Positions 24,410-64,000 of a stretch of 64,000 bases of DNA are shown in pieces. The DNA is from Candidatus Omnitrophota bacterium (lineage in GTDB: Bacteria; Omnitrophota; Omnitrophia; Omnitrophales; Aquincolibacteriaceae). The stretch spans positions 18,985-82,984 of the forward strand of contig JAHFHF010000005.1 of assembly GCA_023247055.1 (NCBI GenBank), written 5' to 3'. Position 1 is the first letter of the stretch; every line of letters starts with the position of its first letter. The notes below the pieces were generated by a model that saw only the letters and a program-made list of their open reading frames with translations, had not been told where the DNA came from and did not search any database. The translations under genes and the position numbers were made by a program.

Positions 24410-24571
24410 ATAGGGTCACTCCTTATGCAAATATTCTTTTAAAATTGTATCATGCGAGCGCATTCTGGAGGATGGCTTTTTCGACGAGGGCCGGGCCCTT
24501 TTTCGGGCCCGGCCCTATCGTTTTTCCGTTTCTTGCGGCATTTCCAGCCCTCTGATATCATACCTCCCGCT

Positions 24572-34167: not shown

Positions 34168-34217
34168 ACTTTGTTTTTTACGGTTGTTATCTCCAAAACG
34201 GATTCAAAGGAGTTTGT

Positions 34218-35012: not shown

Positions 35013-35599
35013 CCCGGGTTTGGGCGCTTGCAGCGCTCCTGTTTTTAAGCGGTTGTACCGCGCTTTTTGGATGGAAAATTCACGCGCCCGGCATTCTCTC
35101 ACAAAACTATTACAGCCGCGTCCTGCCGGCCGAAGACCGCATCGCGCTTTATCTGCCTGACGATGTTCTGCATTATGAATCGACTAACCGCGGCGGCGCG
35201 CTTGCGGACCCTCAGACTTATTATGTCGGCGAAGCATTTGCCCCCATGATTTTAGAGGCCTTCCAGCAAGGATTCCGCGAATTTATTTTTTTTGAAGTCG
35301 AACCGGATGCGGCTCTGATGCGGCAATATGGCGTTCAGCGTCTAGCGGTGGTGCGGATCCGGACGTTAAAAAACCGTGTGACGCTGAAGGGTCAAGCGGT
35401 TCAACTCGAAACCGAGACGCGGGTGTATAATGAAGCTTTACAGCCTGTGGCTGCTTTTGAGTCCATGGGAACTAGCGATGCCAAGAAGGTCTTTGCTAAA
35501 AAAGGCGGCCCTGAAATCAATCTCAATGCCGCTATTGAAAACAACGTGACGGCGATTGTGCAGTACCTGCAGGATAAAGTCATGAGTGATGAGTCATGA
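35009..35599 (+). CDS. Hypothetical lipoprotein.
   Basis: GTG start overlapping the upstream stop (GTGA). Signal peptide with lipobox LFLSGC. Confidence 0.5.
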   Translation: MTRVWALAALLFLSGCTALFGWKIHAPGILSQNYYSRVLPAEDRIALYLPDDVLHYESTNRGGALADPQTYYVGEAFAPMILEAFQQGFREFIFFEVEPDAALMRQYGVQRLAVVRIRTLKNRVTLKGQAVQLETETRVYNEALQPVAAFESMGTSDAKKVFAKKGGPEINLNAAIENNVTAIVQYLQDKVMSDES

Positions 35600-36174
35600 G
35601 TGATGAGAAAAGACAACAGACAATAGAGAACAGAAATTGCCCTAAAAAAGGAGCGAAAACGCTTTCTTTCTGTGTTCTGTCCTCTGTTTTCTGTGCTCTG
35701 TACTCTGTTGTTTGTTCTCTCTCTATCTCTTTTGCCGGCGAGGTTATTCCTGAGACGCCCTCAGCCGTGGTGGTGCGCGAGCACCCGCGCACGGGGCATC
35801 CGTATGTCAGTATTGTCGATCCCAAAAAACCGCGAACGGTTTTTAACGGCGAACTTCAGCGCTACAACCGGCCGGATTACCGCATGCTTGAACCCGGTGT
35901 GAAACCGCGCGATGTGGACTATCATGGGCCGGTGAGCAGCCGCAAAAAAGTTTATGTGCTGGCGGGGGTTTTGGCGGCCGGCGGCGTGGCCGGATATGCG
36001 GCTCTGCCGGTGTCTGCGGCCAGCGGTGGTGCTGCAGGCGGGGCTGGGATATATGCGGCAGCCAGTGGCGCCGTGACAGCCGGGACGTTTTCGACGCATT
36101 GGGCCATGAAGCGTGATGACCGGCCGGATGATTTTACGCAGGCTTCTGTGTCCCGTGAATTGAAGTTGTCTTGA
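35596..36174 (+). CDS. Hypothetical membrane protein with a Gly/Ala-rich (glycine-zipper-like) segment.
   Basis: ATG overlaps the previous stop (ATGA). There is one clear TM helix plus a GGVAGYAALPVSAASGGAAGGAGIYAAASGAV segment. Confidence 0.45.
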   Translation: MSDEKRQQTIENRNCPKKGAKTLSFCVLSSVFCALYSVVCSLSISFAGEVIPETPSAVVVREHPRTGHPYVSIVDPKKPRTVFNGELQRYNRPDYRMLEPGVKPRDVDYHGPVSSRKKVYVLAGVLAAGGVAGYAALPVSAASGGAAGGAGIYAAASGAVTAGTFSTHWAMKRDDRPDDFTQASVSRELKLS

Positions 36175-44523: not shown

Positions 44524-45318
44524 ATGCGAACTCCCATCAAAAAAATTTACGATATGAAAGCCCAAAAGGAAAAAATCGCCGTGCTCACGGCCTATGATTT
44601 TCCCATGGCCCGGATTTTGGATGAGGCGGGCGTGGATGTCATTCTGGTGGGCGATTCGTTGGGCATGGTCGTGCTGGGATATGAAAGCACGGTGCCTGTG
44701 ACCATGCGCGATATGCTGCATCATACGCGGGCGGTTGCGCGCGCCGTGCGCAAAGCGGTGGTGGTGGCTGACATGCCCTTTGGTTCTTATGACATCCCTG
44801 AACGCGCGCTGCGTAACGCGTTGCGGCTGATCAAAGAGGGCGGTGCGGATGCGGTCAAACTCGAAGGCGGACAAACGATTGAAAAACAAGTTGCGCATCT
44901 TGTCCATGCGGGCGTGCCGGTCATGGGGCATGTGGGCATGACCCCTCAGACGGCAACCCGGCTCGGCGGTTACCGCGTGCAGGGCCGTGACTCCAAGCAG
45001 GCCGCTCAAATTTTAAAAGACGCGCTGCTTTTGGAGCGGCTGGGTGCTTTTTCAGTGGTGTTGGAATGCGTGCCGGGACCGTTGGCGCAGAAAATCACCC
45101 GCAAATTGAAGTGCCCAACGATTGGTATTGGCGCAGGCATTCACGCGGACGGTCAAGTGCTTGTGCTCAATGACATGCTGGGTTTGGAAAGCAGTGTACG
45201 GCCGCGGTTTGTGCGGCAGTACGCGCAGTTTGGCAAAGCCGCGCGCAAAGCCGCGCTGGTTTACATCCGCGATGTGAAGGAAAGTAAATTTCCAACTGTG
45301 GAAGAGAGTTTTCATTGA
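44524..45318 (+). CDS. panB: 3-methyl-2-oxobutanoate hydroxymethyltransferase (ketopantoate hydroxymethyltransferase).
   Basis: KEKIAVLTAYDFPMARILDEAGVDVILVGDSLGMV... is the canonical PanB sequence. An alternative ATG lies at 44554. Confidence 0.9.
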   Translation: MRTPIKKIYDMKAQKEKIAVLTAYDFPMARILDEAGVDVILVGDSLGMVVLGYESTVPVTMRDMLHHTRAVARAVRKAVVVADMPFGSYDIPERALRNALRLIKEGGADAVKLEGGQTIEKQVAHLVHAGVPVMGHVGMTPQTATRLGGYRVQGRDSKQAAQILKDALLLERLGAFSVVLECVPGPLAQKITRKLKCPTIGIGAGIHADGQVLVLNDMLGLESSVRPRFVRQYAQFGKAARKAALVYIRDVKESKFPTVEESFH

Positions 45319-46766
45319 GTAAAGATAAAGCTGCTCATATTGTTGTTGCGGACAAAGACGCCGATGTCTGTGACCTGGTGGCAACGCGGCTTTCCAACCG
45401 CGGCTTCCGCATCAGTATGGCCGGGACCATGGAAGAATTGCTGCGCCATCTTGACCGCGACCCGCCGGTCCTGATTCTGGTGTCTTCCGAGATGGAGCGC
45501 CTGGGCGGCCGCCACCCGGTTGAAAAAATCCGCGAAAAAACGCATTTGGCCGCTGTGCCGGTGATTTTGCTGACGCGTGAAAGCGAAATTGCCGAGTTGA
45601 TTCTGGGGCAGGACCGCGGTTTTGACGACTTTCTGATCAAGCCGTTCAGCCCGCTTATTTTACAGCTGCGGGTCGCGCTCAATATGAGCCGCGCGCGCAT
45701 TCGCAGCGATGCCAATGCGTTGACGCATTTGCCAGGCAATGCGGCGATTGAGAAAACCATTAAAACGAAAATCGAACGCGGCGAAAAATTTTCCGTGCTC
45801 TATATCGACATCAATCAATTTAAGGCGTTTAACGACCGCTATGGCTTTGAAAAAGGCGATGACGTGCTGAAACATACGGCCAAACTTTTGACGCACACGC
45901 GCGAAAAAACACGGGGCTGCGAAGATTGTTTCGTAGGACACATTGGCGGCGATGATTTTATCGTGGTCTTGCCGCCGGAACATGAAGAAACATTTGCGCG
46001 AACGTTTATTCAGGAGTTTGACAGCGTGATGCTGTCCTATTACAGCGATGCGGACCGCAGCCGGGGCCATGTGCGTCTGACCAACCGGCGCGGCAAACGT
46101 GAAAATATTCCGCTGATGTCGTGTTCGGTCGCCGCTTGCAATAATGTTTACCGCCCTTATAAAAACCTGGGTGAGATTGCACGCGATGCCGCTGAGGTCA
46201 AAAGTTTTCTGAAATCGCAGACAGGCAGCCACTATCTGCGAGACCGGCGGTCGGAACCGATTGCGCGGCTTGATACCGCGGTCGAAATTTTATCTCCCGA
46301 AGTCGAGGCGCTCGGAAGCCGCGCCAAAGATTCAGATCCCCTGGGGCGGGTGCTCGTGAATGCCGGCCTGCTTACGGAAGAACAGCTTGAACTAGCCATC
46401 AAACGCCACCTCGAAACGCGCCAGCGGCTGGGCCAGACGCTGATTGCTATGAATTTGGTTTCCAGCCAGGATGTGGGGCGGATGCTGGAAAAAAAATTGC
46501 GGGTGCCGTATGTGAGTTTGGCCCAAGCCCGCATTGCGCGCGAAACGCTGCGGATTTTTACGGTGGATTTTATGCGCTCGCACCGCGTTGTGCCCCTCTC
46601 CGCATCCGGCGCGCGCCTGAAGCTGGCCATGTGCGACCCGTTTGACCTTAAAACTTTAGACGCCATTGAACGCGTCAGCCAATACAAACCCGAGCCGTGC
46701 CTTGCGCTCGAAGACGAGTTTGAATCGTTTATCGAAAGCTACGGTCCTTCCGAGAGGACCGCATGA
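45315..46766 (+). CDS. Multidomain signalling protein: degenerate receiver (REC) domain, GGDEF-family domain (GGDDF variant) and a C-terminal MshEN / T2SS-E N-terminal-like (c-di-GMP-binding) domain.
   Basis: TTG start overlapping the panB stop. The REC-like N-terminus lacks the phospho-acceptor Asp (VLILVSSEMERLGG). The GGDEF-like core is FKAFNDRYGFEKGDDVL...GHIGGDDFIVVL. The C-terminal ~110 aa (LGRVLVNAGLLTEEQLELAI...FDLKTLDAIERVSQ) resembles the GSPII_E N-terminal/MshEN fold. Confidence 0.6.
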   Translation: MSKDKAAHIVVADKDADVCDLVATRLSNRGFRISMAGTMEELLRHLDRDPPVLILVSSEMERLGGRHPVEKIREKTHLAAVPVILLTRESEIAELILGQDRGFDDFLIKPFSPLILQLRVALNMSRARIRSDANALTHLPGNAAIEKTIKTKIERGEKFSVLYIDINQFKAFNDRYGFEKGDDVLKHTAKLLTHTREKTRGCEDCFVGHIGGDDFIVVLPPEHEETFARTFIQEFDSVMLSYYSDADRSRGHVRLTNRRGKRENIPLMSCSVAACNNVYRPYKNLGEIARDAAEVKSFLKSQTGSHYLRDRRSEPIARLDTAVEILSPEVEALGSRAKDSDPLGRVLVNAGLLTEEQLELAIKRHLETRQRLGQTLIAMNLVSSQDVGRMLEKKLRVPYVSLAQARIARETLRIFTVDFMRSHRVVPLSASGARLKLAMCDPFDLKTLDAIERVSQYKPEPCLALEDEFESFIESYGPSERTA

Positions 46767-53992: not shown

Positions 53993-55084
53993 TTAATCCC
54001 CGAAACACGTGCCCACGGCGCGTGCGGTGCAAACTTCGTCAGATTGGGGATCGACGGTGCGCAGACGGCTGACCGCTTCTTCCAGAGCGACCGATTCGAT
54101 TTCCTGCCCCCGTAAAACGACCATTCGCCCATACTGTTTCTTGGCAAAAAGCGCGACGGCATGCACGCCGAAGCGTGTTGCCAGCCAGCGGTCAAATGAC
54201 GTCGGAATGCCCCCGCGCTGCAGATGCCCAAGCACAGTGACGCGGCTTTCGAGACCGGTGATGGTCTGAATTTGATTGGCAACCGTATGGCCGATGCCGC
54301 CGAGGCGGACCGGGTCGGGTGAGCCGGCCACTCTCTGCTGGACCATAGCCTCTCCCCCCAAGGGCTTGGCGCCTTCGGCCACGACAATTAGACTAAAACG
54401 TTTGCCGCGCCGGATGCGGGCCTCGATCGCTTCACGGATTTTGTGGATGTCATAGGGAATTTCCGGAATTAAAATCACATCGCCGCCGCCGGAAATGCCG
54501 GAGCGCAGGGCGATCCATCCCGCATAGCGCCCCATGACTTCCAGAACCATGGCGCGGCCATGCGATTCCCCGGTGGTATGCAGCCGGTCCACGGCTTCTG
54601 TGGCGATAGCCAGCGCAGAATCAAAACCAAAAGTCACATCGGTGCAAGCCAGATCGTTGTCGATGGTTTTTGGGATGCCAATCATGGGGACGCCGAGTTT
54701 TGAAAGTTTGAGCGCGATGGTTTGCGTCCCGTCGCCGCCGACAGCAATCAAACCGTCGAGCTTGTGTTTTTTAAGCGTTCGAAGAGCGTCCTGCGACCGG
54801 TCTTGAATCGAAATTTCGCCGTTGGCCTTGCGTTCGGCATAACGGAACGGTTCGGCCGTATTCGACGTCCCTAAAATGGTCCCGCCTTTTTGCAGAATGT
54901 CCGAGACCATGGCTTCCGTAAGCGGAAGCGTCCGGTCTTCAACCAGCCCCGCATACCCATCTAAAATTCCGAGGACTTCACAGTGATGATGGAAAAAAGA
55001 AGACTTCACCACAGCGCGGATCACTGCGTTGAGTCCCGGGCAATCGCCCCCTCCGGTCAAAATTCCGATTCGCAAACACGCCAT
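53993..55084 (-). CDS. pfkA: 6-phosphofructokinase (PfkA family).
   Basis: GILTGGGDCPGLNAVIR, GGDGT and PKTIDNDL motifs. Residue 104 is Gly and residue 124 is Lys (E. coli numbering), so phosphoryl-donor specificity (ATP versus PPi) cannot be decided from sequence. Confidence 0.9.
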   Translation of the reverse strand: MACLRIGILTGGGDCPGLNAVIRAVVKSSFFHHHCEVLGILDGYAGLVEDRTLPLTEAMVSDILQKGGTILGTSNTAEPFRYAERKANGEISIQDRSQDALRTLKKHKLDGLIAVGGDGTQTIALKLSKLGVPMIGIPKTIDNDLACTDVTFGFDSALAIATEAVDRLHTTGESHGRAMVLEVMGRYAGWIALRSGISGGGDVILIPEIPYDIHKIREAIEARIRRGKRFSLIVVAEGAKPLGGEAMVQQRVAGSPDPVRLGGIGHTVANQIQTITGLESRVTVLGHLQRGGIPTSFDRWLATRFGVHAVALFAKKQYGRMVVLRGQEIESVALEEAVSRLRTVDPQSDEVCTARAVGTCFGD

Positions 55085-55537
55085 AAGATCTCATTTCTGA
55101 TTACGCAAGTTGAAAAATATTTTTTCGCCGTATAAAGATTCCTCAGCTTAAAATTATATCTTATAGGTATCTTTTATTCTAAAAAATACATCTAATGATA
55201 AAAAAAGCATCTGAAGACCGCTTTTGGACTTATGACAAATATGTGTTTGGCGCGCTTCGAAAAAACCATACTTTTTTGTCTTGCAAGGATGACAGACGTA
55301 AATACTCTATGCCGTAACTGCTTTTATCATAAGGAGTTATATCCATATACTATATACAAAAAATTTTGGCATGGATGATGCTATATTCCCGCCTTCTGCG
55401 AAATCAAAAGGCAAATATGACTGAGCAGCAGCCTCTGGAATGAAAAACAAGGCATTTTTTTTGTCTAATAATTAAGGAGTTTAAAAATTAATTATTAAAT
55501 TATTTTTAGTAAATTTTTTATTTTGAAGAGGGAGACA

Positions 55538-58500
55538 ATGAACCTTGAGCAAGTTCATACTACGCTAGAAAAAAAAACAAAGACTGCGGCAACGAAAGGC
55601 TATAAAAAAATCGTTGCGGTCTTTTTGGCCGTCCTTTTAATTCTACAAGAGGCTGTTTTCGCAACTCCCTCCGGGAATTTTATCTCCGGAACGCTGACAA
55701 CAACGCCCTCTGCGATTTCCGATCTCGTTTTACCCCGCGCCAGAGTTCTTGAAGGTATTTTTGCCCGTCTCCATTTGCCCGCCGAATTTGGGAAAATTGA
55801 CAATTTTTATTGGGGAGACTCCCGCCGGACAGTGATCCATATTCGCGATTTGCACATCAATACAGAAGCTCAGCATAAGATCGCCCGCATAATCCAGCGG
55901 GTGTCAGAACGTTATGGCGTCCGCCTTGTACTGCTTGAAGGAACTTCGGGAGAACTGGCGCATGGGCTGCTTTCCCGTTATCCCGACCGCAAAGCGCGCG
56001 TGTTGACCGGCCGGGCCTTTTTAAACGAGGGTAAAATGACGGGGCCCGAATATTTGGCCGTTACAAGAAATCCAGGTTTGATTCTTTATGGAGTCGAAAA
56101 TCAAGAACTTTATGAGCAGAACCGCGCGGCACTCCTGAAGGCCGTGGATCTGGGACACGGATTGAAAGGACATTTGGAAGATCTGCGGGAAAATGTAAAA
56201 ACGCTGGCTGTCCGGATTTTTCAAAAAAATATCAGGGACTGGATTAAAAACCGCGAATTATTTCAGAATAACCAGCAGTCCATCGCAGACTACGCCCGTT
56301 TTTTGAAGCAGGTTTGCGAGCAGGAAAATCTGCCAACAGATACGCCCCAACTCCGGCGTCTGTTAAAACTTGAAAAAATTGAGAGCCGGCTGCGGCGGGA
56401 AGGACGCTTTAAGAACGAAATCGAACTCGCGCGGTATCTCGAAACGGTTTTAAAACAAGAAGGCGGTCTGGATGCGGGAATTTTCGATGAAATCAAACAA
56501 ATCGAAAAGACGCTTGAAGCGCATTGGTTTATGCCGCCGTCAGGCCTTCCCTGGGATTTGACCTCGCCAGTCTCTCAAGCCGTCAGCCAGCTTTATAAAC
56601 TTTTCCGCATTCTTGAGGTTTATAAAAAAATGTTCGCGCTCAGCCTGACACGCGAAGACGTGGAATTTCTTTATCAAAACCGCGAAGATTTTGACCCGTA
56701 CGCTTTGAGTGATGCGCTCAGCCGTTTAGGACACCGTTATTCTCTGGAGATTTCTACGCGCGCTTTCCCATTCATGGAGTTCGAAGCCGCGCTCGAGGCC
56801 TATGAAGATTTTTATAAGCTGGCGCTGGCCCGCGACGAAACACTGATGACAGAATCGTTGAAAAGCATGAAACACTACCATGAGACCATCGCAGTTCTTG
56901 TCACGGGGGGATTTCACACTCCGGCAATTGAAGAGCGATTGAAAAAAGAAGGCTATAATTTTTGCACCATTACCCCTGCACTGCAGAGCGGCATTGATTT
57001 TGCCAAAGACAAGAAACTGTATTTTAGAGCCATGCAAATGCCGCAGTCTCCGGTCGCCCGCTATGCAGGTGCTGGCGATCCAACGATGCAGCTTCAAGTG
57101 CCTAGTCTATTTCCCGTGAAAAGTGCGTTTGGGGCTTTGGGAACAAAACTAGACCTTCCCCGGTGGATGGTAACCTATGACCGCGCCGGCGATTTGGCGA
57201 CGATGATGATAGCCCTCGCAGCAACAGGGCTTCGCCGCGCCGTACCCGGCCTTCAGCCCCGCCTTCAAAGCGCATTCAACGAATTAAGTCCCGAAGAACA
57301 AGTTCTCGCCGGAATTTACCGGCGTATTCACGGAGTGCAAACGCTTGCGCGATCACTGGATGCCCGGACCGGAAGCGCCGTCGTCCCGTTTACTGCGGAC
57401 ATGGGTTTTGGATTGGAATTCAATTGGAGGCCCGCGCCGTTTGGTTCTGCCGCGTCTGAAAACCCGCGGCGGCAGAGTTTTTCATTCGTGACGCCGGACG
57501 GAGTGCGTTCCGAAGTGCGGATTTTGACCGAACCCCTGCTGGCCGATATCGCCGGCAGAAATTTTTTACGCGCAGCGCAAAAACAAAAATTCACAAGCGC
57601 TGCCGCACCGCTGCCAAGCCGCGAGCCAGCGGTCTCCATGCAGGCTAAAGTCCGGCAGGCATCCCGGGTTAGAACCACGCGCAGCATCCTTGTGAATTCC
57701 AACATTCCCGTTCCGGTTAAAACGAGGACGCCGGCAGTGAAGAGCCCTGGGCAGTTTACGTTTTCAACACTCACAGTCCCGAGTCTTAACCCGCTTCCCG
57801 AACTGGCAGCTCTGGCATTGACAGCTGCGCTTAGCGGCGGTTTTGGCATGCTGCCATGGATGGCAGTTCTCATACGCCTGAGTTGGTTTTCTTCGATTTT
57901 TGCACATGGATTCGGCCACGTTCTCTTTAAGTGGATTGTCGATCAGAATCATCCCTTTGATTTACGCGAATCCCTGGAAGGCATAAGCGCGCGTGAATTT
58001 TGGACCGGTCTTATTCCCTTCACGGCCATTTATACGCCCGGTTTATCCGCCAAAATTCCGGCGCCTGTTTCGGCGGGGGAGCGTGATGCGAAAAAAATTT
58101 CCTTTAAAGCTTTGGGGGGCCCAGCACTGAATCTGTTCGGAGCTGCCGCGGCGGCATTTTTGCTGTTTTCTACGGCGCTCAGCGGCCCAGCGGCAGCAGG
58201 GCTTTATACAGCTTTGATTTTCAATACGTTATTTGCGGCGCTTTCATGGTCGGATTATATGTCTTGGGCTGCGGGGTCGGCGCCTTGGGGGTTTGCCTGC
58301 GGTTATCTGGATTATGTGGGGCCGCGCCTCAGCACAGATGACAAATCCCTTGTCCCCGAGGATTACATTGAAAGCATCTACAACTCCACGCGTATTTTGA
58401 GCGGCCGCGGTAACCAGGCCTATGGATTTCAATCCATGGCACTCGACCGTAACGGCCATGTTGTCTTTTTAGGATTGAAAGATGTAAATCCCAAGCGCGC

Positions 58501-61500
58501 GGTGCTTCACAGCCGGCTGCGCGGCGATTTAAAAAGGGAAGTCTTGGCCGCACGGCGCGATGGTTTCAGACCGCTTGAAGATCTGATCGAGTACTCGTCC
58601 CATCTGCGTTTTGGAACTTCGACGCCGCCGTCTAAAAAAGAAACCCACCCGCATCCCAGTCCTGAACTTCTGACGACCTACTACGATTGGACAAGAGGAA
58701 CAAAAGAAATTAATGCCCGAAATGCTAATTTTCAGATCAGCGTGCGTCATAACGGGGATAACGACGGCACGAAAGAAGAAGAGCAGATTCTTGAGGCCTA
58801 TCCCATTTATGCTTTTGGCAAAGAGATGAGTTATAAAGAAATCCGCAGGGAACTGAGCCGTATCCTGTATGAGGATACCACTCAAGGAGACTCGCCTGTG
58901 ATTGCGTCGATGCTTGCGCTCTATGCAACTCAAGGCCGCTGGGGCGCTTCGGCGCGTCTGGCCTATTTGATGATGGCAGGGTCTTTGGGGGAATCCTTTA
59001 AAGGCCTGAGCCATCCGAAAGCTATTGATAAGATCACGCAGCGCTGGGGCGATATTTTTGACGCGGAGTTTCAGCGGTTTAAGACGAAGATTTTTACCCA
59101 GCAGAAGGGCCGGTGGGTCCCTGACCGTACGGTGATCGCAGGCGAATTTTTGCCGGCCCTGCATCAGAGTGCCGCCGCGCGGCTGAGAGGGGACAAGTAT
59201 CTCGGCGCCTTACCGGTGGATGTTTTGAGTGCTTTTATTGAGAGCGCTGTGTTTGCTTTTTTGCACCAAGATACTTATCGCGCGATTCAAATGCTGATGG
59301 CGACATCGCTTCCTTCGAGCACTTTCGGGCTTTCCGTGAGTTCTACGTTGGAGCCTAAGACCAAATTCTGGGTCGCGAAGGGCCAGCCCGGTGCGCTTGG
59401 ACATAATCCCGATACCGGTGCGTTCATTGCAGCTTCCGATCCGGGAGCTGTTTTCGAAGGCCTCAATGAGCGCTCACGTTTTCTGACGTTTAATGACGAT
59501 CAGGGCGAAATTATCCGGCTGGATATGTCCCAAGCCCGCGCGCCGGTTTTAAATATTTTTTCTATGGCGGCCCACCGCGAGTTGAGCCCGCAAGAGATCC
59601 AAGCGCGCTGGGTAGCCATTGCAGGCAATCCCTACATTCAACTTCCGCCTTCTCAGGACGGCCGTTCCAATTTGAAGCGCGATTTAGAAGAACTCAATGA
59701 TATTTTGATCAATGTCAATGACAGCTTCGATGCGCGGTATCGTGCCAGCCGCAAAGCCCCTTCCAATCGCATAACAGCCGACCGGTTTAATACGGCGCTG
59801 ATTGAAATAGCCCGCCAGAAAAAAAACCGGGATGATCATGAAGCAGACATCCTTTTTATTGCGGAAGGTCCGAGTTACGACTTGCTTCAGCGCAAAATTC
59901 AAGACTTGAAATCCCTCGCTCCCGGCATCCGCGTCCACGTCGTTCAGGGCAATCAGTATATGGAAAATAAAGATGCGTATTACTCCGGCATCGGATCGGC
60001 TTTTAAAATCGGAAAAGAGACCATTGTTTTTTCGGTCAGCCAATCGGGTATGACGTTTTCGAATGTCGAAGCTGTCCGCGATGCGGAAATTATGAGAAAA
60101 AACAGCCTGCTCAAGGATGTTTTTGTAATGACAGGAGAGTGGTTCAGCGTTTTAGGGCGCTCTCTGGGCCAGGATTATTTTCCGGACTCCGATTTCAGCG
60201 GGCGTATTTTTTCTAATATGAGCGGACGGCGCTATTCCGAAGCGGCCACGATGGCAGATGCGACTGACTTTTTTCTAACTAAACTTTTAATCGATGCTTT
60301 TAAAAATCTGGCGGCCCAAAGCCCGGCCGATGTTTCCGCGGCCCCGCTGTTTGGGGTGAAGTTATCCGTTTCTGAACTCAACCGGCTTGAAGCCAATATT
60401 GCTCCGTTTTTGCATAGCGGGATCGCAAAAATTACGGGCCGGGGCGCCCATGGCCGCGAGGTCCGGTCTCCGGAGAATGAGGGGCTGCTGTTGCAGGGGC
60501 AAGATATTGCGAATCATATCTCGGAACAATTTTTTGCGACGAGCATGGTCCGGTTCTATACCTTTGTCAGCACGCAGCTCAGCCTGCCTGTTTTTAAAGT
60601 GCTGGCGCTTCTTTTCACGATGACCGCTCTATGGGCTACGGGCGTCGAATCTTTCAGCGTGCTTCTTCAGAATATTTCGACGCTGGAAATGGCGATGTTT
60701 TTCGGCGTTTGGTTTATCGCCCACGAGGCCGACGCCTTTTTTTATACCTGGCAGGACAAATTTTTTATTTATCTTATCCGGTTTATGCAGGGAAGAGAAA
60801 TCATGGCGCGCACCGGTTCCCGTTTTCTCGCCATCGGAGGCCCCTACTGGTCGCTGTTAAGAGACTACTTCCGCGCCGCTTTGCTCGAAGCGCCTGCGGG
60901 ACTGCAGCTGGCGGGCGTCGATGGGCGAGAAACGGCCGGTGATTTTGTGCATCGCTTCAAAGACTCGCCGCGCGGGACGCTGGTACTTATTCAGACGGCC
61001 GATCCTGAAAATGCGACGACGGCGCAGGATTCCGCGGCCGGGGCCTGGAAAATGGCCATGAGCCAGCTCGACGGCGTGCGTAATTTTAATGTCGGGCCTT
61101 ATATTCTTGCCAATACCACCAACCCGAAGCTAGCCGGGCGCTATAAGGCCCGGACCGTCGCCGTGAGCGCTCCCGCAGTTCAAGCCCCGGATGACATTGA
61201 CCGCATGCTGAACGTGCGCTGGTTTGAGGAATTGAAACTTCTGGTGAGCGGCCAGGTCATTGCTGCCGAAATGGCGGAAAAACTTTCTAAAATCGAAGTG
61301 CCTTTTTATGTGCGCCGCTCCGAGTCTGCCTATGCCTATCTTTTGCAAGCATTTCTTGGATTTTTTTCACGCATTTATTCTGCACTGGTCCTGCGGGCCA
61401 ATGATTTCATGATGCAGAATTTATTCCGCGCGGCGCCCTATGACCGCATGTTTACGCCGGGTAAAGGACAGAGCGGCTTGACTGTTTTCACCACGCAAAT

Positions 61501-64000
61501 CAATGCTCCCCGGCCGAATAAAACCGGTGAAACTAAACGGGACATCCGTGCGATCGCGCATCGACTGATGCAAGAAGGCATTGACACAAGCATGCCTTGG
61601 CTTCCTAAAGCCGGCGTGTTTGCGTTCATCTATGCCGATCTTTACAATCCGGCATCTGAAAGAAACGCCGCTCCGGTTGTCGCGATACAAATGCCGGAAA
61701 TCTTGAAATCTGTTGTGAAACCCCAGACACTGCAATCGGATACAGAAACCATTTCTGAAATTGGTTTTGATTGGGGCGGTTCGCTGGCGTTAGTGATGGT
61801 GCCTCCAGCGGCCCGCCATGAACGTTTTGAGCGTCCGCCGGTTAAAAAACGTTTTATTGCGAGGCTTCCAGCCGCTGTGCCCCAGCGGGGCGAATTTGCA
61901 TGGGGCTCTTTTGAACAGCCGGCGGGCGGGGAGCGTCCGCGTTCCGAAATGAGAAATGCCGTGCCCCGAGTGGAAGTCATCGAAGCAGGCCGGAGATTTA
62001 TTCTGACCCTGCCGGCTTCTTCCGGAGCTCAAATTCAGGATCTTTCTGGCAGGACGTTCGAAACATTGACCTTTGACCGGATTGACGGTGCTTATCAAAC
62101 CGCCGATGGCGGCATGACAGCCTCCCTGGATGCTCAAAAACAACGGCTGGTTTTTTTAGGAACGCGTTACGGTTTTGCGGATATCCGGGGAAAAAAAGCG
62201 GTCGTCTATAAACAATTTAATCTGCCGCTGGAGAGCACGGTTTTCGAGCACTTACAAGACCCTTTGCGTGTGCCGCAAGTACTGCCGTTGCCGCCGTCCA
62301 TTTCACCGCCGACTTCCGGATATTCTGCCCCGCTGTCGTATGCGCCGCCGCTGCAGATGCAGAGTCCTATTCCGCGGGGTCTCTTAAAAATCTCGATCAT
62401 GGGAGTGCTGATCGCCGGAGCCGTGTTGGCTTTCTCCGAAGGCTGGATTCCGACTGCCGCCGCTTCTGCAATAGCGACGTTTCAACTCCCATGGACATCT
62501 TCAAGCAGCGCTATGCATCTGGCCTATGGGGGTGGTTTAACCGCCGCCGGGCTCTTGATAGTCTGGGAAACGCGCGACCGTTCGACGCGCAGTTCGCGGA
62601 TGGCATGGACAGCCCGTTTGCGCGGCTGGCTCTTTCGCAGTCTTTTTGTCGGATTTTTTCCCGTGTTTGGATATGCGATCCTGGCTTTCGAACTTGCGCC
62701 GCTGCCGGTGCTCGCGGCCGGACTCTGGCTTTTTTATGGAACTCTTTTTGCCGGCGCGTTTGTTTTTATTTGGGCTCTTACAGTCATGAGCCTGCCCTTT
62801 CGCCGCTGGCTGCCACCTGCCGTTGCGTCTTGGTTTTCATTCAAAAAAGATGTGGCCGCCTTGCTCGGAGTGGCTTTCTTGGCTGCAGCAGGGTATCTAG
62901 GAGCGCAGTCGAATTTGGCACCGTCGATTTTACCCTATCTGCAGGGTTGGATTCCTCTACAGAAAACTTCTACCCTTCCCGAAGAAAACCATCCTCGTCT
63001 GACAGCGCCTTTGGCTGCAGTCCATTGGCCGGCCCCGCAGCAACAACTGCCGCCGGTCTCTCAAGTGCCGCGCCGGTTGTCGCGCGATCTAGTCTCGCTT
63101 GGCTGGGATCCGGCTGCCATGCCGCCGGGTGAACCGGCCAAGGTGACCCGGCCTTCCGGGCCCCGCTCTTTTGAATTTTTAGGGGTGACGCCGCTTCTTT
63201 ACGAAGGCGGGGACGATAAAATTACCACGGTTTTTCTCCTGGCCCAAAAAGAAGGTTATCTTGAAATGGATCCTCGTTCCGGCATCCGCGCCGCCGATTG
63301 GCAGAATCCCGGCAAGGCTTTTGTGATCAAAGGGCCGCAGCCGCTGCTTCGTTACCGGCGGCCTGTGACGGAAACGGAAGCCTCGGCGCTGCGAGAGTTG
63401 ATTGAGCGTTTAAAAGAGGTGGATGCGCGCTATGAGCATGCGGATGCAGCTCTGGACCGCCGTATTGTTCCGCTGAAAACACGGTTGGCAAATAAAGAAG
63501 CCGTGATTACGGAAATCATCAATCATTTTGAAGTCGAGCAGCAGAACCAGGTTTTCGGCACGCTCCTGGCGCCTTTCAGAGCCGGAGAGGAAGGCTGGAT
63601 TCTTCCAGGCAAACGCGCGCTCGGAAGCGCCGTATCCGGGACAGCGCTGGCGCGCTTTCAGAGCCAAAATCGTTTGACGGTCCGCGTTGCCGTGCCCCTA
63701 AGCGTTTGGAAAGATTATGATTTGACGGCGATGCGTGTTGGCGTGACGCTGGAAGGCCAGGAACAAAGCGCGCGTATCGTACACCTTACGGCGGAGCCGC
63801 GTCTCGACGCTCAGATGATTTTAACGCTTGAACTTTTTTCCAAGGGAAAAATTTTTACCTGGAATACCGAAGAAAACGGTCCGGCGCACGTGCGTGTGCG
63901 GTTGGAAATGGAACCGCGGAGGGGCCCTGTTTCTTACAGTCAGAAATTTGACGCTGATGCGTTTGTGAGTTCTTATGCCGAGATTGGCACGCGCGTCCGT
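55538..64000 (+). CDS. Second giant ORF, 3'-partial (at least 2,821 codons to the window end). N-terminal signal anchor, internal multi-TM blocks, and the shared RSEVR motif.
   Basis: GAGGGAG ribosome-binding site 5 nt upstream of the ATG at 55538. Manual frame-2 translation from 55538 showed no stop codon through 64000. N-terminus MNLEQVHTTLEKKTKTAATKGYKKIVAVFLAVLLILQEAVFA. It is absent from the supplied ORF track, presumably because no stop lies in the window. Confidence 0.75.
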   Translation, partial: MNLEQVHTTLEKKTKTAATKGYKKIVAVFLAVLLILQEAVFATPSGNFISGTLTTTPSAISDLVLPRARVLEGIFARLHLPAEFGKIDNFYWGDSRRTVIHIRDLHINTEAQHKIARIIQRVSERYGVRLVLLEGTSGELAHGLLSRYPDRKARVLTGRAFLNEGKMTGPEYLAVTRNPGLILYGVENQELYEQNRAALLKAVDLGHGLKGHLEDLRENVKTLAVRIFQKNIRDWIKNRELFQNNQQSIADYARFLKQVCEQENLPTDTPQLRRLLKLEKIESRLRREGRFKNEIELARYLETVLKQEGGLDAGIFDEIKQIEKTLEAHWFMPPSGLPWDLTSPVSQAVSQLYKLFRILEVYKKMFALSLTREDVEFLYQNREDFDPYALSDALSRLGHRYSLEISTRAFPFMEFEAALEAYEDFYKLALARDETLMTESLKSMKHYHETIAVLVTGGFHTPAIEERLKKEGYNFCTITPALQSGIDFAKDKKLYFRAMQMPQSPVARYAGAGDPTMQLQVPSLFPVKSAFGALGTKLDLPRWMVTYDRAGDLATMMIALAATGLRRAVPGLQPRLQSAFNELSPEEQVLAGIYRRIHGVQTLARSLDARTGSAVVPFTADMGFGLEFNWRPAPFGSAASENPRRQSFSFVTPDGVRSEVRILTEPLLADIAGRNFLRAAQKQKFTSAAAPLPSREPAVSMQAKVRQASRVRTTRSILVNSNIPVPVKTRTPAVKSPGQFTFSTLTVPSLNPLPELAALALTAALSGGFGMLPWMAVLIRLSWFSSIFAHGFGHVLFKWIVDQNHPFDLRESLEGISAREFWTGLIPFTAIYTPGLSAKIPAPVSAGERDAKKISFKALGGPALNLFGAAAAAFLLFSTALSGPAAAGLYTALIFNTLFAALSWSDYMSWAAGSAPWGFACGYLDYVGPRLSTDDKSLVPEDYIESIYNSTRILSGRGNQAYGFQSMALDRNGHVVFLGLKDVNPKRAVLHSRLRGDLKREVLAARRDGFRPLEDLIEYSSHLRFGTSTPPSKKETHPHPSPELLTTYYDWTRGTKEINARNANFQISVRHNGDNDGTKEEEQILEAYPIYAFGKEMSYKEIRRELSRILYEDTTQGDSPVIASMLALYATQGRWGASARLAYLMMAGSLGESFKGLSHPKAIDKITQRWGDIFDAEFQRFKTKIFTQQKGRWVPDRTVIAGEFLPALHQSAAARLRGDKYLGALPVDVLSAFIESAVFAFLHQDTYRAIQMLMATSLPSSTFGLSVSSTLEPKTKFWVAKGQPGALGHNPDTGAFIAASDPGAVFEGLNERSRFLTFNDDQGEIIRLDMSQARAPVLNIFSMAAHRELSPQEIQARWVAIAGNPYIQLPPSQDGRSNLKRDLEELNDILINVNDSFDARYRASRKAPSNRITADRFNTALIEIARQKKNRDDHEADILFIAEGPSYDLLQRKIQDLKSLAPGIRVHVVQGNQYMENKDAYYSGIGSAFKIGKETIVFSVSQSGMTFSNVEAVRDAEIMRKNSLLKDVFVMTGEWFSVLGRSLGQDYFPDSDFSGRIFSNMSGRRYSEAATMADATDFFLTKLLIDAFKNLAAQSPADVSAAPLFGVKLSVSELNRLEANIAPFLHSGIAKITGRGAHGREVRSPENEGLLLQGQDIANHISEQFFATSMVRFYTFVSTQLSLPVFKVLALLFTMTALWATGVESFSVLLQNISTLEMAMFFGVWFIAHEADAFFYTWQDKFFIYLIRFMQGREIMARTGSRFLAIGGPYWSLLRDYFRAALLEAPAGLQLAGVDGRETAGDFVHRFKDSPRGTLVLIQTADPENATTAQDSAAGAWKMAMSQLDGVRNFNVGPYILANTTNPKLAGRYKARTVAVSAPAVQAPDDIDRMLNVRWFEELKLLVSGQVIAAEMAEKLSKIEVPFYVRRSESAYAYLLQAFLGFFSRIYSALVLRANDFMMQNLFRAAPYDRMFTPGKGQSGLTVFTTQINAPRPNKTGETKRDIRAIAHRLMQEGIDTSMPWLPKAGVFAFIYADLYNPASERNAAPVVAIQMPEILKSVVKPQTLQSDTETISEIGFDWGGSLALVMVPPAARHERFERPPVKKRFIARLPAAVPQRGEFAWGSFEQPAGGERPRSEMRNAVPRVEVIEAGRRFILTLPASSGAQIQDLSGRTFETLTFDRIDGAYQTADGGMTASLDAQKQRLVFLGTRYGFADIRGKKAVVYKQFNLPLESTVFEHLQDPLRVPQVLPLPPSISPPTSGYSAPLSYAPPLQMQSPIPRGLLKISIMGVLIAGAVLAFSEGWIPTAAASAIATFQLPWTSSSSAMHLAYGGGLTAAGLLIVWETRDRSTRSSRMAWTARLRGWLFRSLFVGFFPVFGYAILAFELAPLPVLAAGLWLFYGTLFAGAFVFIWALTVMSLPFRRWLPPAVASWFSFKKDVAALLGVAFLAAAGYLGAQSNLAPSILPYLQGWIPLQKTSTLPEENHPRLTAPLAAVHWPAPQQQLPPVSQVPRRLSRDLVSLGWDPAAMPPGEPAKVTRPSGPRSFEFLGVTPLLYEGGDDKITTVFLLAQKEGYLEMDPRSGIRAADWQNPGKAFVIKGPQPLLRYRRPVTETEASALRELIERLKEVDARYEHADAALDRRIVPLKTRLANKEAVITEIINHFEVEQQNQVFGTLLAPFRAGEEGWILPGKRALGSAVSGTALARFQSQNRLTVRVAVPLSVWKDYDLTAMRVGVTLEGQEQSARIVHLTAEPRLDAQMILTLELFSKGKIFTWNTEENGPAHVRVRLEMEPRRGPVSYSQKFDADAFVSSYAEIGTRVR

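Follow-up and report, generated by a model that had tools for sequence, protein, structure and literature searches.

A long, probably modular membrane protein of a Candidatus Omnitrophota bacterium and its recurring RSExR motif

The g2 gene and its upstream region

The window considered here, namely, the whole 64,000-nucleotide stretch of contig JAHFHF010000005.1 that was analysed, holds two very long genes that are cut by its ends, termed giant ORF 1 and g2. These and the features around the start of g2 are as follows:

1-23757, + strand: giant ORF 1, at least 7,917 aa with its N-terminus lying outside the window, carrying RSE[VMI]R in frame 13 times
53993-55084, - strand: pfk
55085-55537, no strand: AT-rich divergent intergenic region between pfk and g2 (GC 0.305)
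55528-55534, + strand: Shine-Dalgarno-like GAGGGAG, read from the sequence
55538-64000, + strand: 5' part of g2, stop-free and running past the window

A sequence-only reading of this DNA had proposed that a giant frame opens with the ATG at 55538, a claim that an overlooked stop codon would overturn. Machine translation revealed no stop up to position 64000, bearing out a frame of 2,821 codons; g2 is absent from the ORF list because the ORF tool used drops ORFs that run off the window. The nearest in-frame stop 5' of the ATG lies at 55496, with the TTG at 55523 being the sole alternative in-frame start on that side. The ribosome-binding site assigned to the ATG is present, albeit at a spacing of 3 nt and not 5. 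With regard to the downstream extension suggested by the same reading, ENA contig k141_4627563 matches g2 at 100% identity across 8,463 nt; in this contig, the frame is readable without a stop to aa 3,182 and the called gene, cut by the contig end, reaches at least 3,510 codons. Four g2 homologues (P0001-P0004; 4,342-4,747 aa) are collinear with g2 and their alignment leaves ~750-900 aa past g2 aa 3,182; a full length of ~3,950-4,000 aa is predicted. Between two-thirds and three-quarters of a single real gene of ~4,000 codons, counted from its 5' end, lies within the window. The protein is large, but ~4,000 aa falls below the 10-kAA and 30-kAA ranges given in the literature for long and giant Omnitrophota proteins, respectively.

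Given that long genes can be joined or broken in metagenome assemblies, the frame could reflect a chimeric assembly, neighbouring genes fused by error or a decaying pseudogene. One relative (P0122, on ENA contig_42455) is clearly fragmented, its pieces being called separately beside transposase genes. For g2, such an origin is nonetheless very improbable. Three independent contigs (ENA and Logan) are identical around the g2 start, one of these spanning 9.5 kb of the gene with zero differences, and 3,182 stop-free codons can be read. Moreover, the module order matches that of the four homologues, which come from different genomes and show 25-58% identity, and three of these (P0001, P0002 and P0004), when looked up, proved to be complete single genes inside their contigs. 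Finally, conservation at the protein level extends throughout g2.

The region separating pfk and g2 is as strikingly AT-rich as had been noted, its GC content being the lowest of any intergenic region in the window (0.36-0.54 in the 12 others, as compared to 0.519 in coding sequence). These 453 bp presumably serve as a divergent promoter region shared with pfk, with both promoters lying inside. Promoter-like matches within the region occur at chance level (2 versus 2.1 expected), no Rfam match was obtained, and short AT-rich inverted repeats were seen but no credible ORF. It had also been considered that the region marks the boundary of a horizontally acquired island or is silenced by a nucleoid protein. 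The depth of the dip would fit such a scenario, with the next lowest intergenic value being 0.364 and with the region lying 22 GC points below g2, whereas the upstream regions of five g2 homologues lie 8-14 points below their genes. Still, this scenario is unlikely. Because the GC content of g2 (0.529) equals that of its surroundings, including its housekeeping neighbours and window coding sequence at large, there is no hint of a horizontal-transfer boundary; tRNA genes, integrases, repeats or mobile-element remnants were not noticed; and a divergent gene pair would be expected to place two promoters and two 5' leaders here.

Modular organization of g2

The following segments, all on the + strand, were assigned to g2:

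55538-55666: signal peptide or signal anchor, aa 1-43, from hydropathy
55760-57112: head domain, aa ~75-525, of the erythromycin-esterase/ChaN/TIKI/TraB-type fold
55847-55855: candidate catalytic D104-x-H106 of the head
55937-55939: candidate catalytic E134 of the head
56831-56833: candidate catalytic R432 of the head
56915-56917: candidate catalytic H460, in GGFH of the head
57770-58312: TM block A, aa ~745-925, from hydropathy
57905-57919: H-G-x-G-H motif in TM block A, aa 790-794
58298-60547: divergent GlmS/GFAT-like module, aa 921-~1670, from an AF2 model, Foldseek and signature
58298-58300: predicted nucleophile Cys921, immediately following TM block A
60515-60847: TM block B, aa ~1660-1770, from hydropathy, limits approximate
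62378-62905: TM block C, aa ~2281-2456, from hydropathy, ~5 hydrophobic segments
62915-64000: start of a conserved C-terminal region, aa 2460 to at least 3182, from P0001-P0004

The N-terminal signal anchor recognized earlier corresponds to a hydrophobic core at aa 25-43 (hydropathy peak 2.43), accompanied by a Lys-rich n-region. As judged by eye, a signal-peptidase site is possible between ...AVFA and TPS, and the N-termini of homologues follow the same pattern (...QEASYA before TP and ...QEASTA before AP). The head domain, which defines the family, matches no Pfam model and stands at the front of over 10,000 long-protein clusters, retains a (D/E)-x-H ... 28 ... E ... R ... 28 ... H pattern, the spacing found in active members of the Ere/ChaN/TIKI superfamily (PMC6254334). 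Relative to the TIKI/TraB/erythromycin-esterase/ChaN superfamily (EreA-C, Bcr135/136, ChaN, HopBA1, RRSP, PMT and TIKI1/2), however, sequence similarity is undetectable, the first Glu is replaced by Asp, a large helical insertion of ~230 residues interrupts the fold mid-domain, and a head of the g2 type is always the exported tip of a very long membrane protein.

The hydropathy profile agrees with the proposal that soluble regions are interleaved with TM blocks. Multi-TM blocks had been placed near 57770-58310 and 62380-62900, where they were indeed found, while the third block, B, had gone unmentioned. Block B, with its hydropathy peak at aa 1681-1703, is conserved with P0001, and block A, together with its H-G-x-G-H motif, is kept in P0001, P0122 and P0123. 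The C-terminal region shows 25-49% identity across A4 with P0001-P0004 and returned nothing from a PDB profile search or from Pfam.

In the AF2 model of the GlmS-like module (pLDDT 76.7), a class-II (Ntn) glutamine amidotransferase domain precedes a SIS sugar-phosphate isomerase domain. Full-length GlmS or human GFAT-1 accounted for all of the best 31 Foldseek matches in the PDB (E 2e-16 to 4e-13), with PurF and SIS proteins ranking next, and the GlmS-like signature (C-G, R-G, H-x-R-x-x-T, N-G-D, D-S/T, S-Q-S-G-x-T) is conserved. A PDB sequence-profile search placed GlmS and SIS proteins among its 7 matches at E values of only 0.17-1.3, the module fell below all Pfam and NCBIfam thresholds, and the Cys is lost in the relative P0005. 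The module thus resembles GlmS/GFAT in its predicted two-domain Ntn class-II glutaminase and SIS isomerase structure and in sharing C-G, R-G, H-x-R, N-G, D and the S-x-S-G-x-T phosphate loop, yet differs in being built into a membrane protein, in its long insertions and in the position of its Cys at residue 921, after a TM block, and not at residue 1 or 2. At 13-14% identity and with sub-threshold Pfam and NCBIfam scores, GlmS-like activity would not be assured.

A GlmS-type glutaminase requires its Cys as a free N-terminus. Were the module active, a cut between residues 920 and 921 would therefore be required, since Cys921 is internal, and cleavage at this position would free it. In Bacillus subtilis PurF and in GltB, residues ahead of the catalytic Cys are removed to yield an N-terminal nucleophile, with the propeptides of class-II amidotransferases measuring 11-42 residues. 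Residues likewise precede the catalytic Cys in g2, although here the 'propeptide' would comprise 920 residues and span a TM block as well as an exported domain. The internal Cys921 is a second hint of chain cutting, independent of the RSExR motif considered below.

On the basis of crude hydropathy, a topology is inferred in which Sec would export the head and the chain would be threaded by the TM blocks such that enzyme modules, e.g., the GlmS-like module, would lie on the cytoplasmic side. This simple topology is questioned by P0001, whose NAD(P)-dependent glutamate dehydrogenase module shares the side of the supposedly exported head.

The RSExR motif

Copies of a short peptide motif recur in g2 and giant ORF 1:

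57506-57520, + strand: RSEVR, copy 1 in g2, aa 657-661, in the linker from the head domain to TM block A
61940-61954, + strand: RSEMR, copy 2 in g2, aa 2135-2139, at a homology break between two modules
+ strand, starting at 565, 6952, 7924, 9424, 10945, 11995, 12367, 14428, 15106, 16966, 19423, 21412 and 22807: RSE[VMI]R in giant ORF 1

The in-frame sharing of a motif by the two genes, as reported earlier, is non-random. The window contains 15 copies of RSE[VMI]R, as compared to ~0.06 expected from amino-acid composition (0.049 and 0.014), and 14 occurrences of the DNA pattern CGNTCNGARNTNCG, as compared to 0.36 expected from shuffles. All copies lie on the + strand in the coding frame of g2 or giant ORF 1, with none in the remaining 32 kb. 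The motif had been given as VRSEVR; its core is RSE(V/M/I)R, with the leading V lying outside. Copies in giant ORF 1 are spaced by 124-2,129 aa, mostly 300-800. Copy 2 of g2 falls between P0001 alignment blocks (g2 aa 749-2045 and 2143-2819). That g2 carries just two copies weighs against the reading of the motif favoured below.

The motif had been described as a hairpin, and a DNA or mRNA hairpin acting in pausing, RNase processing, uptake-like events or recombination, in frame by chance, would account for the near-fixed CGC-TCC-GAA-(A/G)TG-CGG of the window copies, given that CGC, CGG and TCC each make up just 19-27% of their synonymous sets. Likewise, the mean folding energy of 27-nt windows at the copies is -8.3 kcal/mol, as compared to -3.4 for controls in the same genes, an effect also seen in another genome of ~49% GC (L008). 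Against this, the stem (CCGC...GCGG) is the automatic product of Arg CGC followed by xTG-CGG, and the copies in g2 itself fold weakly (-5.7 and -3.3). In the low-GC genomes L007 and L009, folding is at background (-2.7 versus -2.0 and -2.2 versus -2.1, respectively). Relatives, in which the motif reads R-S-E-[VLAMI]-R, conserve the peptide but vary the codons, including Ser AGC and Arg AGA or CGT (CGT-TCT-GAA-GTA-CGG, CGA-AGC-GAA-CTT-CGA, CGT-TCC-GAA-TTA-AGA and others). Together with the exclusively coding-strand, in-frame placement of the copies, these observations render a nucleic acid hairpin improbable.

Among 258 family proteins, RSExR occurs 265 times in 66, as compared to 12.4 occurrences expected, while conservative variants are rare. 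The nearest head-domain neighbours of motif-bearing proteins are themselves motif-bearing in 39 of 48 cases (10.9 expected). The motif is restricted to a clade and specific to long proteins of this kind. As only about a quarter of the members carry RSExR, it is not required for the common function of the family, nor is it simply tied to the universal head domain.

The first copy in relatives is usually found at aa ~530-720, right behind the head domain. Of 78 copies, just one falls within a Pfam match, as compared to 14.4 expected, with none of 20,000 randomisations yielding so low a count; as a point against the boundary role, one copy in P0101 sits within a TIM-barrel match. In addition, 14 copies lie no more than 60 aa outside a domain edge (8.6 expected; P = 0.045). 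In P0117, copies at 1075 and 1561 bracket hexokinase (1094-1552), those at 3106 and 3398 bracket adenylate kinase (3137-3313), and those at 3398 and 3644 bracket a receiver domain (3411-3521); in P0101, PGI (3389-3896) lies between copies at 3331 and 3946. Bulky hydrophobic residues are scarce in the flanks of RSExR (P = 3e-21), while no enrichment of copies near TM segments was detected. Because the copies avoid Pfam domains and flank them, RSExR very likely marks the boundaries between modules in these long chains.

Relation to other long proteins and the possible role of RSExR

The two giant genes had been thought to belong to one system. Comparison of their proteins detected no similarity, and between the two genes lie ~31.8 kb of housekeeping genes, encoded on both strands. 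Complete g2 homologues stand alone as single genes; their neighbourhoods are unrelated and contain no other giant gene within 10 kb. Synteny of the two giant genes is not conserved. Giant ORF 1, for which no Pfam domain and, for the first 2,500 aa, no homologue were found, and g2 are of the same protein class and not one locus, and are probably handled by the same machinery.

Those g2 homologues with a source name come mostly from Candidatus Omnitrophota, and g2 homologues embed PGM, SecA, glutamate dehydrogenase, aldolase, PGI, hexokinase and other enzymes. As such, g2 belongs to a known kind of long, multi-TM, multi-enzyme Omnitrophota protein, described as the 'Archaeovorin' type (West-Roberts et al., 2023; bioRxiv 10.1101/2023.11.21.568195) and as class 1 'multi-enzyme metabolic clusters' (Nielsen and Lui, 2026; bioRxiv 10.64898/2026.06.07.730766). 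Like these, g2 is one very long ORF that encodes an N-terminal signal, a number of TM blocks and housekeeping-type enzyme modules amid unannotatable stretches, and its neighbours are poorly conserved. By contrast, at ~4 kaa it reaches neither the 10-kAA threshold of the catalogue nor the 30-kAA 'giant' range, and no SecA-DEAD, C39 or S8 domain was found within its 3,182 readable aa. Neither report includes the TIKI/Ere-like head or RSExR, and one of the two describes the cleavage points as unknown. Overall, it is likely that g2 encodes a long modular membrane protein, typical of Omnitrophota, with RSExR boundary marks.

The most likely role inferred for RSExR is that of a recognition or cleavage site. 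If cut there, the chain would be processed to module-sized pieces, in the manner of a bacterial polyprotein, and such putative proteolysis is proposed tentatively. It is also conceivable, although short of probable, that the motif marks boundaries that stay uncut, serving as a docking site or as a peptide for co-translational folding or pausing in one long tethered multi-enzyme scaffold; its partner could be a chaperone, an insertase, a scaffold or a kinase that targets the Ser. The positional evidence is identical for both readings, no motif-linked protease was seen in any homologue locus inspected, the invariant Ser between Arg and Glu may resemble a kinase site, and the literature is undecided on whether such long proteins are cut. 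On the other hand, the internal Ntn Cys921 would imply at least one cut for GlmS-like activity, the pieces between motif copies have the size of proteins (mostly 200-800 aa), and nothing positive points to any binding partner.

Processing at RSExR would find a functional likeness, and not a family membership, in MARTX toxins and other autoprocessing modular proteins. MARTX toxins likewise present a chain of several thousand residues with unrelated enzyme modules in series, which an in-built protease frees by cutting at short sites between them. MARTX cleavage falls after Leu, and RSExR differs from the MARTX cut motif. Furthermore, neither RTX repeats nor a cysteine protease domain was detected in the long protein, and g2 is predicted to be an inner-membrane protein with cytoplasmic-type metabolic enzymes and putative cleavage, rather than a secreted toxin. 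The MARTX effector RRSP has a TIKI fold, as in the head of g2 (PMC6254334).

The g2 reading frame and the protein kind to which it belongs

The gene considered here, termed g2, and its immediate surroundings comprise the following features:

53993-55084, minus strand: pfk, the divergent neighbour of g2
55085-55537: AT-rich stretch between pfk and g2
55538 to the window end, plus strand: g2, its frame still open

Machine translation of the frame beginning with the ATG at 55538 revealed 2,821 codons and zero stops up to position 64000, exactly as stated in the sequence-only reading, which had also remarked on the absence of this gene from the ORF track; indeed, the ORF listing omits frames that run off the window. 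The closest in-frame stop 5' of the ATG is found at 55496, and the sole alternative start before that ATG is the TTG at 55523. The proposed ribosome-binding sequence GAGGGAG is likewise present (55528-55534), although the gap between it and the ATG amounts to 3 bases and not 5. Downstream extension of the contig, a check that had been suggested, was achieved with an ENA contig that adds 361 residues to the product, with the frame remaining open to aa 3,182. ENA contig k141_4627563 and the window are identical across all 8,463 shared bases, and the g2 gene called on that contig is 3,510 aa long and is cut by the contig end, such that g2 spans at least 3,510 aa. The neighbouring pfk likewise occurs on three contigs in ENA and Logan assemblies.

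When 5.8 billion proteins were searched, 150 relatives of g2 were retrieved, the closest being P0001 (4,548 aa), P0002 (4,342 aa), P0003 (4,690 aa) and P0004 (4,747 aa), all of which align collinearly with g2. Contig look-ups revealed P0001, P0002 and P0004 to be complete single genes within longer contigs. Because all four alignments with the extended g2 product reach residue 3,182, leaving 754-905 homologue residues, a total length of some 3,950-4,000 aa is predicted for g2. Given the identical independent contig and the collinear, complete homologues, it is very unlikely that g2 is an assembly artefact or a pseudogene.

Those relatives with a source name derive mostly from Candidatus Omnitrophota/Omnitrophica, and Auribacterota, Elusimicrobia and Chlamydiota account for a few. 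They measure 1,500-4,900 aa and have only about 15% of the query in common, namely the head domain (aa ~75-525). Outside the shared part, they carry enzymes such as phosphoglucomutase, SecA, glutamate dehydrogenase, aldolase, PEP-utilising enzymes and glycogen phosphorylase, as well as hexokinase, adenylate kinase, phosphoglucose isomerase, TIM and others. In P0001, for example, a complete glutamate dehydrogenase (aa 590-1039) lies between the head domain and the first membrane block, where g2 contains only a linker.

Long and giant proteins of Omnitrophota have been described as presenting many transmembrane helices, together with metabolic domains dispersed through sequence that is for the most part unannotated (Seymour et al. 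2023; West-Roberts et al. 2023; Nielsen and Lui 2026), and have been termed 'Archaeovorins' (West-Roberts et al. 2023, bioRxiv 10.1101/2023.11.21.568195) or, as class 1, 'multi-enzyme metabolic clusters' (Nielsen and Lui 2026, bioRxiv 10.64898/2026.06.07.730766). g2 is a member of this known kind of long, multi-enzyme membrane protein, and one of its shorter representatives. As in the Archaeovorin type or class 1, where a signal peptide and/or multiple transmembrane helices are seen, g2 would contain an N-terminal hydrophobic signal and three transmembrane blocks, as assigned by hydropathy; similarly, a GlmS/GFAT-like module is predicted amid unannotated sequence, comparable to the embedded metabolic enzymes of that kind. 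By contrast, g2 falls below the catalogue threshold of at least 10 kAA, and below that of at least 30 kAA for 'giant', at a length of at least 3,510 aa observed and ~3,950-4,000 aa predicted. Moreover, neither a divergent SecA-DEAD domain nor a C39 or S8 peptidase near the N-terminus, both of them frequent although not universal in such proteins, was detected in aa 1-2,821 of g2. Pfam, NCBIfam (E <= 1) and PDB sequence searches with the 2,821-aa product yielded no match. MARTX toxins, with their RTX/glycine-rich repeats, inositol-hexakisphosphate-activated cysteine protease domain and type I secretion, offer a functional analogy only, as no MARTX-type Pfam domains were detected in g2 (aa 1-2,821) or in P0001-P0004.

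The region between pfk and g2 had been singled out as strikingly AT-rich, and this was borne out, with a GC fraction of 0.305 as compared to 0.36-0.54 in 12 other intergenic regions and 0.519 in coding sequence. Within this divergent intergenic region, promoter-like matches occurred at chance level, and no Rfam family and no notable repeats or ORFs were found. The GC content of g2 equals that of its neighbours. A shift towards AT was likewise seen upstream of five homologues, amounting to 8-14 GC points as compared to 22 for g2. Most economically, 55085-55537 is read as an ordinary double-promoter region.

Head domain, membrane blocks and GlmS-like module

The N-terminal signal anchor previously assigned to g2 is supported by a hydrophobic segment at aa 25-43 on hydropathy analysis. 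A lysine-rich start is followed by a hydrophobic core and the sequence ...AVFA|TPS, with the N-termini of homologues being alike; judged by eye, this would be a Sec signal peptide or a signal anchor. In an alignment of 22 diverse head domains, H106, E134, R432 and G457-G-F-H460 (g2 numbering) are invariant, while D104 is nearly so. An AlphaFold2 model generated from this alignment (pLDDT 83.5, pTM 0.78) ranked EreC first in a Foldseek search, weakly (E 0.03), and the modelled fold agrees with that of ChaN, Bcr135, EreC and HopBA1 in comprising a core parallel beta-sheet flanked by helices. These proteins are named as the TIKI superfamily in the RRSP structure paper, in which a catalytic set of two His and two Glu together with a conserved Arg is described (PMC6254334), with the catalytic residues being H85/E113 in Bcr135 and E3900, H3902, E3930, R4001 and H4030 in RRSP (PMC6254334). 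The spacing in g2 equals that of Bcr135 (H85/E113) and RRSP (H3902/E3930; R4001/H4030), namely D104-x-H106 with 28 residues to E134, and R432 with 28 residues to H460.

Family models for TIKI/TraB/Ere/ChaN (Pfam PF04187, PF01963, PF05139 and the like) nonetheless show no sequence-level match to the g2 head. Profiles of the full domain and of its core returned no relevant match against PDB sequences, Pfam returned none on g2, and a precomputed PF04187 match is carried by a single distant homologue, P0037. Since sequence methods find nothing, the assignment draws on the predicted fold and the residue pattern, according to which the head domain very probably adopts a TIKI/Ere-like fold. A profile search of 1.84 billion representative proteins retrieved 10,398 clusters, 7,372 of them at E <= 1e-30. 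Among the 150 matches listed, the domain is N-terminal in all but one, and the proteins range from 502 to 7,853 aa, including some of 7,000-7,850 aa. One Omnitrophota preprint describes the N-terminal regions of such proteins as generally lacking identifiable domains, C39/S8 peptidases excepted, and a TIKI/Ere-like head is described in neither Omnitrophota preprint (West-Roberts et al. 2023; Nielsen and Lui 2026). Such a head, for which there is no Pfam model and which more than 10,000 clusters share, would bring much of the dark matter together as a single family having a candidate hydrolase.

The two multi-transmembrane blocks previously placed at ~57770-58310 and 62380-62900 were recovered by hydropathy, which also pointed to an additional block. 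With the module discussed below, the membrane-associated part of g2 is laid out as follows:

aa ~745-925, plus strand: transmembrane block A, with a conserved H-G-x-G-H
aa 921-~1670, plus strand: GlmS-like module
aa ~1660-1770, plus strand: transmembrane block B, the additional block
aa ~2281-2456, plus strand: transmembrane block C

The H-G-x-G-H of block A (57905-57919, aa 790-794) sits within a transmembrane helix, is followed further on by a conserved S-D and is retained in P0001, P0122 and P0123. It may recall the HExxH...D of site-2 proteases, but the Glu is lacking.

Directly after block A, the GlmS-like module begins with ...F-A-C921-G-Y-L-D-Y-V-G. Kept in its relatives are C-G, R-G, H-x-R-x-x-T, N-G-D, D-S/T and, later, S-Q-S-G-x-T. 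In the alignment of these relatives (A2), G39 of the R-G pair, H103-x-R105-x-x-T108, N153-G154-D155 and D199 are invariant, and we take residues of this alignment to be the equivalents of Arg26, Arg73, Asn98-Gly99 and Asp123 of E. coli GlmS. SQSG(M/Q/E)T, the SIS phosphate loop, appears in all A2 relatives except P0002, while Cys921, internal in g2, is kept in six of the seven aligned relatives. A model of aa 920-1670, built from only eight sequences (pLDDT 76.7), was compared to the PDB by Foldseek, whereupon the best 31 matches were all full-length GlmS or human GFAT-1 (E 2e-16 to 4e-13; 713-783 alignment columns; 13-14% sequence identity), with PurF and SIS proteins ranking next. The sequence profile hinted at GlmS and SIS proteins in the PDB (E 0.17-1.3), and the curated models GATase_6/7 and SIS (Pfam) and glmS (NCBIfam) gave no g2 match at E <= 1. 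As modelled, the module resembles the two-domain fold of GlmS/GFAT, in which an Ntn glutaminase is followed by a SIS isomerase, and the predicted structure marks aa 921-~1670 as a very divergent glucosamine-6-phosphate-synthase-like module.

In class-II amidotransferases, the nucleophile is Cys1 with a free amino group, and PurF and GltB strip short propeptides to expose the nucleophile Cys. In contrast to the short propeptide preceding the Cys of PurF and GltB, 920 residues precede Cys921 in g2. The 839-aa P0122, which comprises block A and the GlmS-like module, was considered as a stand-alone version but was rejected as being a piece of a broken P0001-like gene. At its locus (ENA contig_42455), a glutamate dehydrogenase fragment lies upstream and a 533-aa ORF downstream, with transposase genes nearby.

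Beyond block B, g2 continues with some 370 aa without a fold assignment, a copy of the RSEMR peptide, block C and a tail conserved in P0001-P0004. A profile of the tail (aa 2460-3182, starting at 62915 in the window) found no match in the PDB or Pfam. By eye, two stretches of the tail ('APF..GEEGW.LPG...LG') may recall HlyD/membrane-fusion-like hairpin and barrel segments, for which PDB and Pfam profiles came back empty.

The RSExR motif at module boundaries

The sequence-only reading had described an in-frame VRSEVR hairpin motif common to both giant genes, that is, g2 and giant ORF 1 (g1; 1-23757, plus strand). A shared motif, R-S-E-[VLAMI]-R or RSExR, was indeed found, conserved as a peptide and not as a hairpin. 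The g2 copies are:

57506-57520, plus strand: RSEVR, aa 657
61940-61954, plus strand: RSEMR, second copy

g1 contains 13 copies of RSE[VMI]R, with 0.049 and 0.014 copies being expected from composition in the two giant genes. At the DNA level, CGNTCNGARNTNCG occurs 14 times as compared to 0.36 expected, every time on the plus strand and in frame. In the 258 family proteins collected, 265 copies were counted in 66 proteins (12.4 expected), with V, L, A, M or I at position 4 in 231; the conservative variants KSE.R, RTE.R and RSD.R are rare, and flanking residues are unconserved. RSExR is a peptide-level motif. In four other genomes it is spelled by many codon combinations, among them AGC at Ser and AGA, CGA or CGT at Arg, and in the two of low GC content the folding of its sites does not exceed background. 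A small CCGC...GCGG stem is seen in the window and in one other genome of ~49% GC, and arises because of the CGC and xTG-CGG codons. Within the window, the codons are nearly fixed (CGC TCC GAA A/GTG CGG; e.g., 9424-9438 and 14428-14442), far more uniform than the codon usage of the genes, and GCC (Ala) precedes seven of the 15 copies. This uniformity could possibly stem from gene conversion, from a recent spread in this genome or from a secondary constraint acting on the nucleotides.

The position of the motif was considered in eight motif-rich relatives having Pfam coordinates. A single copy of 78 falls inside a Pfam match, as opposed to 14.4 expected, with none of 20,000 randomisations reaching so low a count, and 14 copies are found outside a domain but no more than 60 aa from its edge, as compared to 8.6 expected (P = 0.045). 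In several instances, two copies bracket a domain:

Domains bracketed by RSExR copies (residue numbers; copy, domain, copy)
P0117: 1075, hexokinase 1094-1552, 1561
P0117: 3106, adenylate kinase 3137-3313, 3398
P0117: 3398, receiver domain 3411-3521, 3644
P0101: 3331, phosphoglucose isomerase 3389-3896, 3946

The flanks contain fewer bulky hydrophobic residues than do random positions (P = 3e-21); near transmembrane segments, no enrichment of RSExR was seen. In most cases, the first copy comes after the head domain, at aa ~530-720, a pattern that the g2 copy at aa 657 fits, while the second g2 copy falls exactly at the homology break between two P0001 alignment blocks. In g1, copies are mostly spaced 300-800 aa apart. 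Motif-bearing proteins cluster by head similarity, the nearest neighbour also carrying RSExR in 39 of 48 cases (10.9 expected).

Relatives lacking RSExR (P0037, P0065, P0070 and P0024) display recurring short motifs of their own, the flanks of which are unrelated. RDPLHAGE, for instance, is repeated six times in P0037, and P0065 contains nine copies of G[AK]SLG (six being GASLG); RPYQDAQGR and SGAAP, four times each, are also found among them. These sequences suggest a lineage-specific punctuation.

The long and giant proteins of Omnitrophota are known but little understood, and whether they act as one chain or are cut, and at which points, has been described as an open question (West-Roberts et al. 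2023). RSExR bears directly on this question, as a sharply defined pentapeptide that marks the module boundaries of two long, otherwise unrelated genes from the same genome, and those of about a quarter of the relatives sampled, turns it into a testable prediction. A search of the literature with the motif strings returned unrelated acronyms only. Neither the TIKI/Ere-like head as a family-defining domain, nor RSExR as a boundary motif, nor a GlmS-like module with an internal nucleophile is described in the literature consulted on Omnitrophota long proteins.

Possible processing and the relation of g2 to g1

Given the order of the domains, their assigned folds and the location of RSExR at boundaries, as shown by the analysis, a mechanism can be envisaged in which the head domain would be exported, the transmembrane blocks would alternate between membrane sides, the enzyme modules would act at the membrane and RSExR would serve as an inter-module signal. 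All functional claims for g2, its head, the GlmS-like module and RSExR are computational. A role for RSExR in marking boundaries is considered highly likely. The favoured reading goes further and would make RSExR a processing site and the long ORFs polyproteins, since neighbouring copies delimit pieces of the size of a protein, RSExR itself is short, strict and placed in linkers, and cleavage at 920|921 seems to be required by the GlmS-like module. The internal Cys921 nucleophile seems to argue independently for processing. Even so, proteolysis at RSExR is proposed tentatively, its chances being put at somewhat below even. The main rival holds that RSExR remains uncut and serves as a docking, modification or pausing motif; should the motif indeed not be a cleavage site, it would still offer a practical marker for splitting long proteins into modules for structure prediction.

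Were RSExR cut, the head domain could be considered as one candidate protease, because its relatives include site-specific endopeptidases, namely TIKI and RRSP. The link is weak, however, as the head is universal in the family while RSExR is not, and the head is quite unlikely to be the enzyme in question. The fullest version of the processing reading would have RSExR be the polyprotein cleavage code of one large Omnitrophota clade, with single membrane-threaded chains being cut into enzyme-sized products by the TIKI-fold head or a co-evolving protease, and with self-cleavage at the Ntn Cys activating the GlmS-like module. As a whole this is doubtful, yet if true, these would be the first sequence-defined processing sites of giant bacterial proteins, with products predictable from sequence. 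The topology of g2, as suggested by hydropathy, is the weakest part of the mechanism. Simple topology models are questioned by P0001, in which an NAD(P)-dependent glutamate dehydrogenase would lie on the same side as the presumably exported head. Implausible localisation of the same kind has been noted for Omnitrophota giant proteins (West-Roberts et al. 2023).

As to the suggestion that the two giant genes belong to the same system, the shared motif places g1 and g2 in the same class and they probably use the same machinery, but they do not form one operon or locus. BLASTP comparison of g2 with g1 yielded chance-level matches alone (E >= 3.5), such that nothing apart from RSExR is common to both. 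The two are separated by ~31.8 kb of ordinary genes on both strands, including those for MscS, a branched-chain amino-acid ABC transporter, folD, panB, an aminotransferase, a glycosyltransferase, hemA/C/D/B, a nitroreductase and pfk. Homologues of g2 stand alone in unrelated contexts. The g1 product, of at least 7,917 aa with its N-terminal side off the window, contains few transmembrane-like segments and no Pfam domain beyond a sub-threshold TPR match, and no homologue of its first 2,500 aa was retrieved from 5.8 billion proteins at E <= 1e-3. Essentially, g1 is an orphan.

The sole local match of g1 is an HExxH module ('IHEALHHYY...SGF...PGEEGW'; window ~7417-7590, aa 2472-2529) that shares 45% identity over 58 aa with P0040 (aa 897-954; E 1.6e-8) and falls between the RSExR copies of aa 2317 and aa 2641. 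Another HExxH is present at aa 4769. Judging from its sequence, the module may be metalloprotease-like. As a candidate RSExR protease it was set aside, being present in one of 258 family proteins, P0040, which itself lacks RSExR. A 'GEEGW' string common to g1 and g2 was put down to chance, given five occurrences in all.

Elsewhere in the window, a 1,207-aa ORF without a Pfam match (24452-28075, plus strand) begins ~700 bp 3' of g1, after a 694-bp gap with a GC fraction of 0.43. Three consecutive overlapping ORFs of 286, 196 and 192 aa, also without Pfam matches, occupy 34152-36174 (plus strand). Finally, 45315-46766 (plus strand), flanked by panB on one side and a cytochrome c assembly gene on the other, encodes a receiver-GGDEF-MshEN protein, in which a domain for the synthesis of c-di-GMP is joined to one for its binding; the presence of c-di-GMP components in the vicinity of giant genes has been reported (West-Roberts et al. 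2023).
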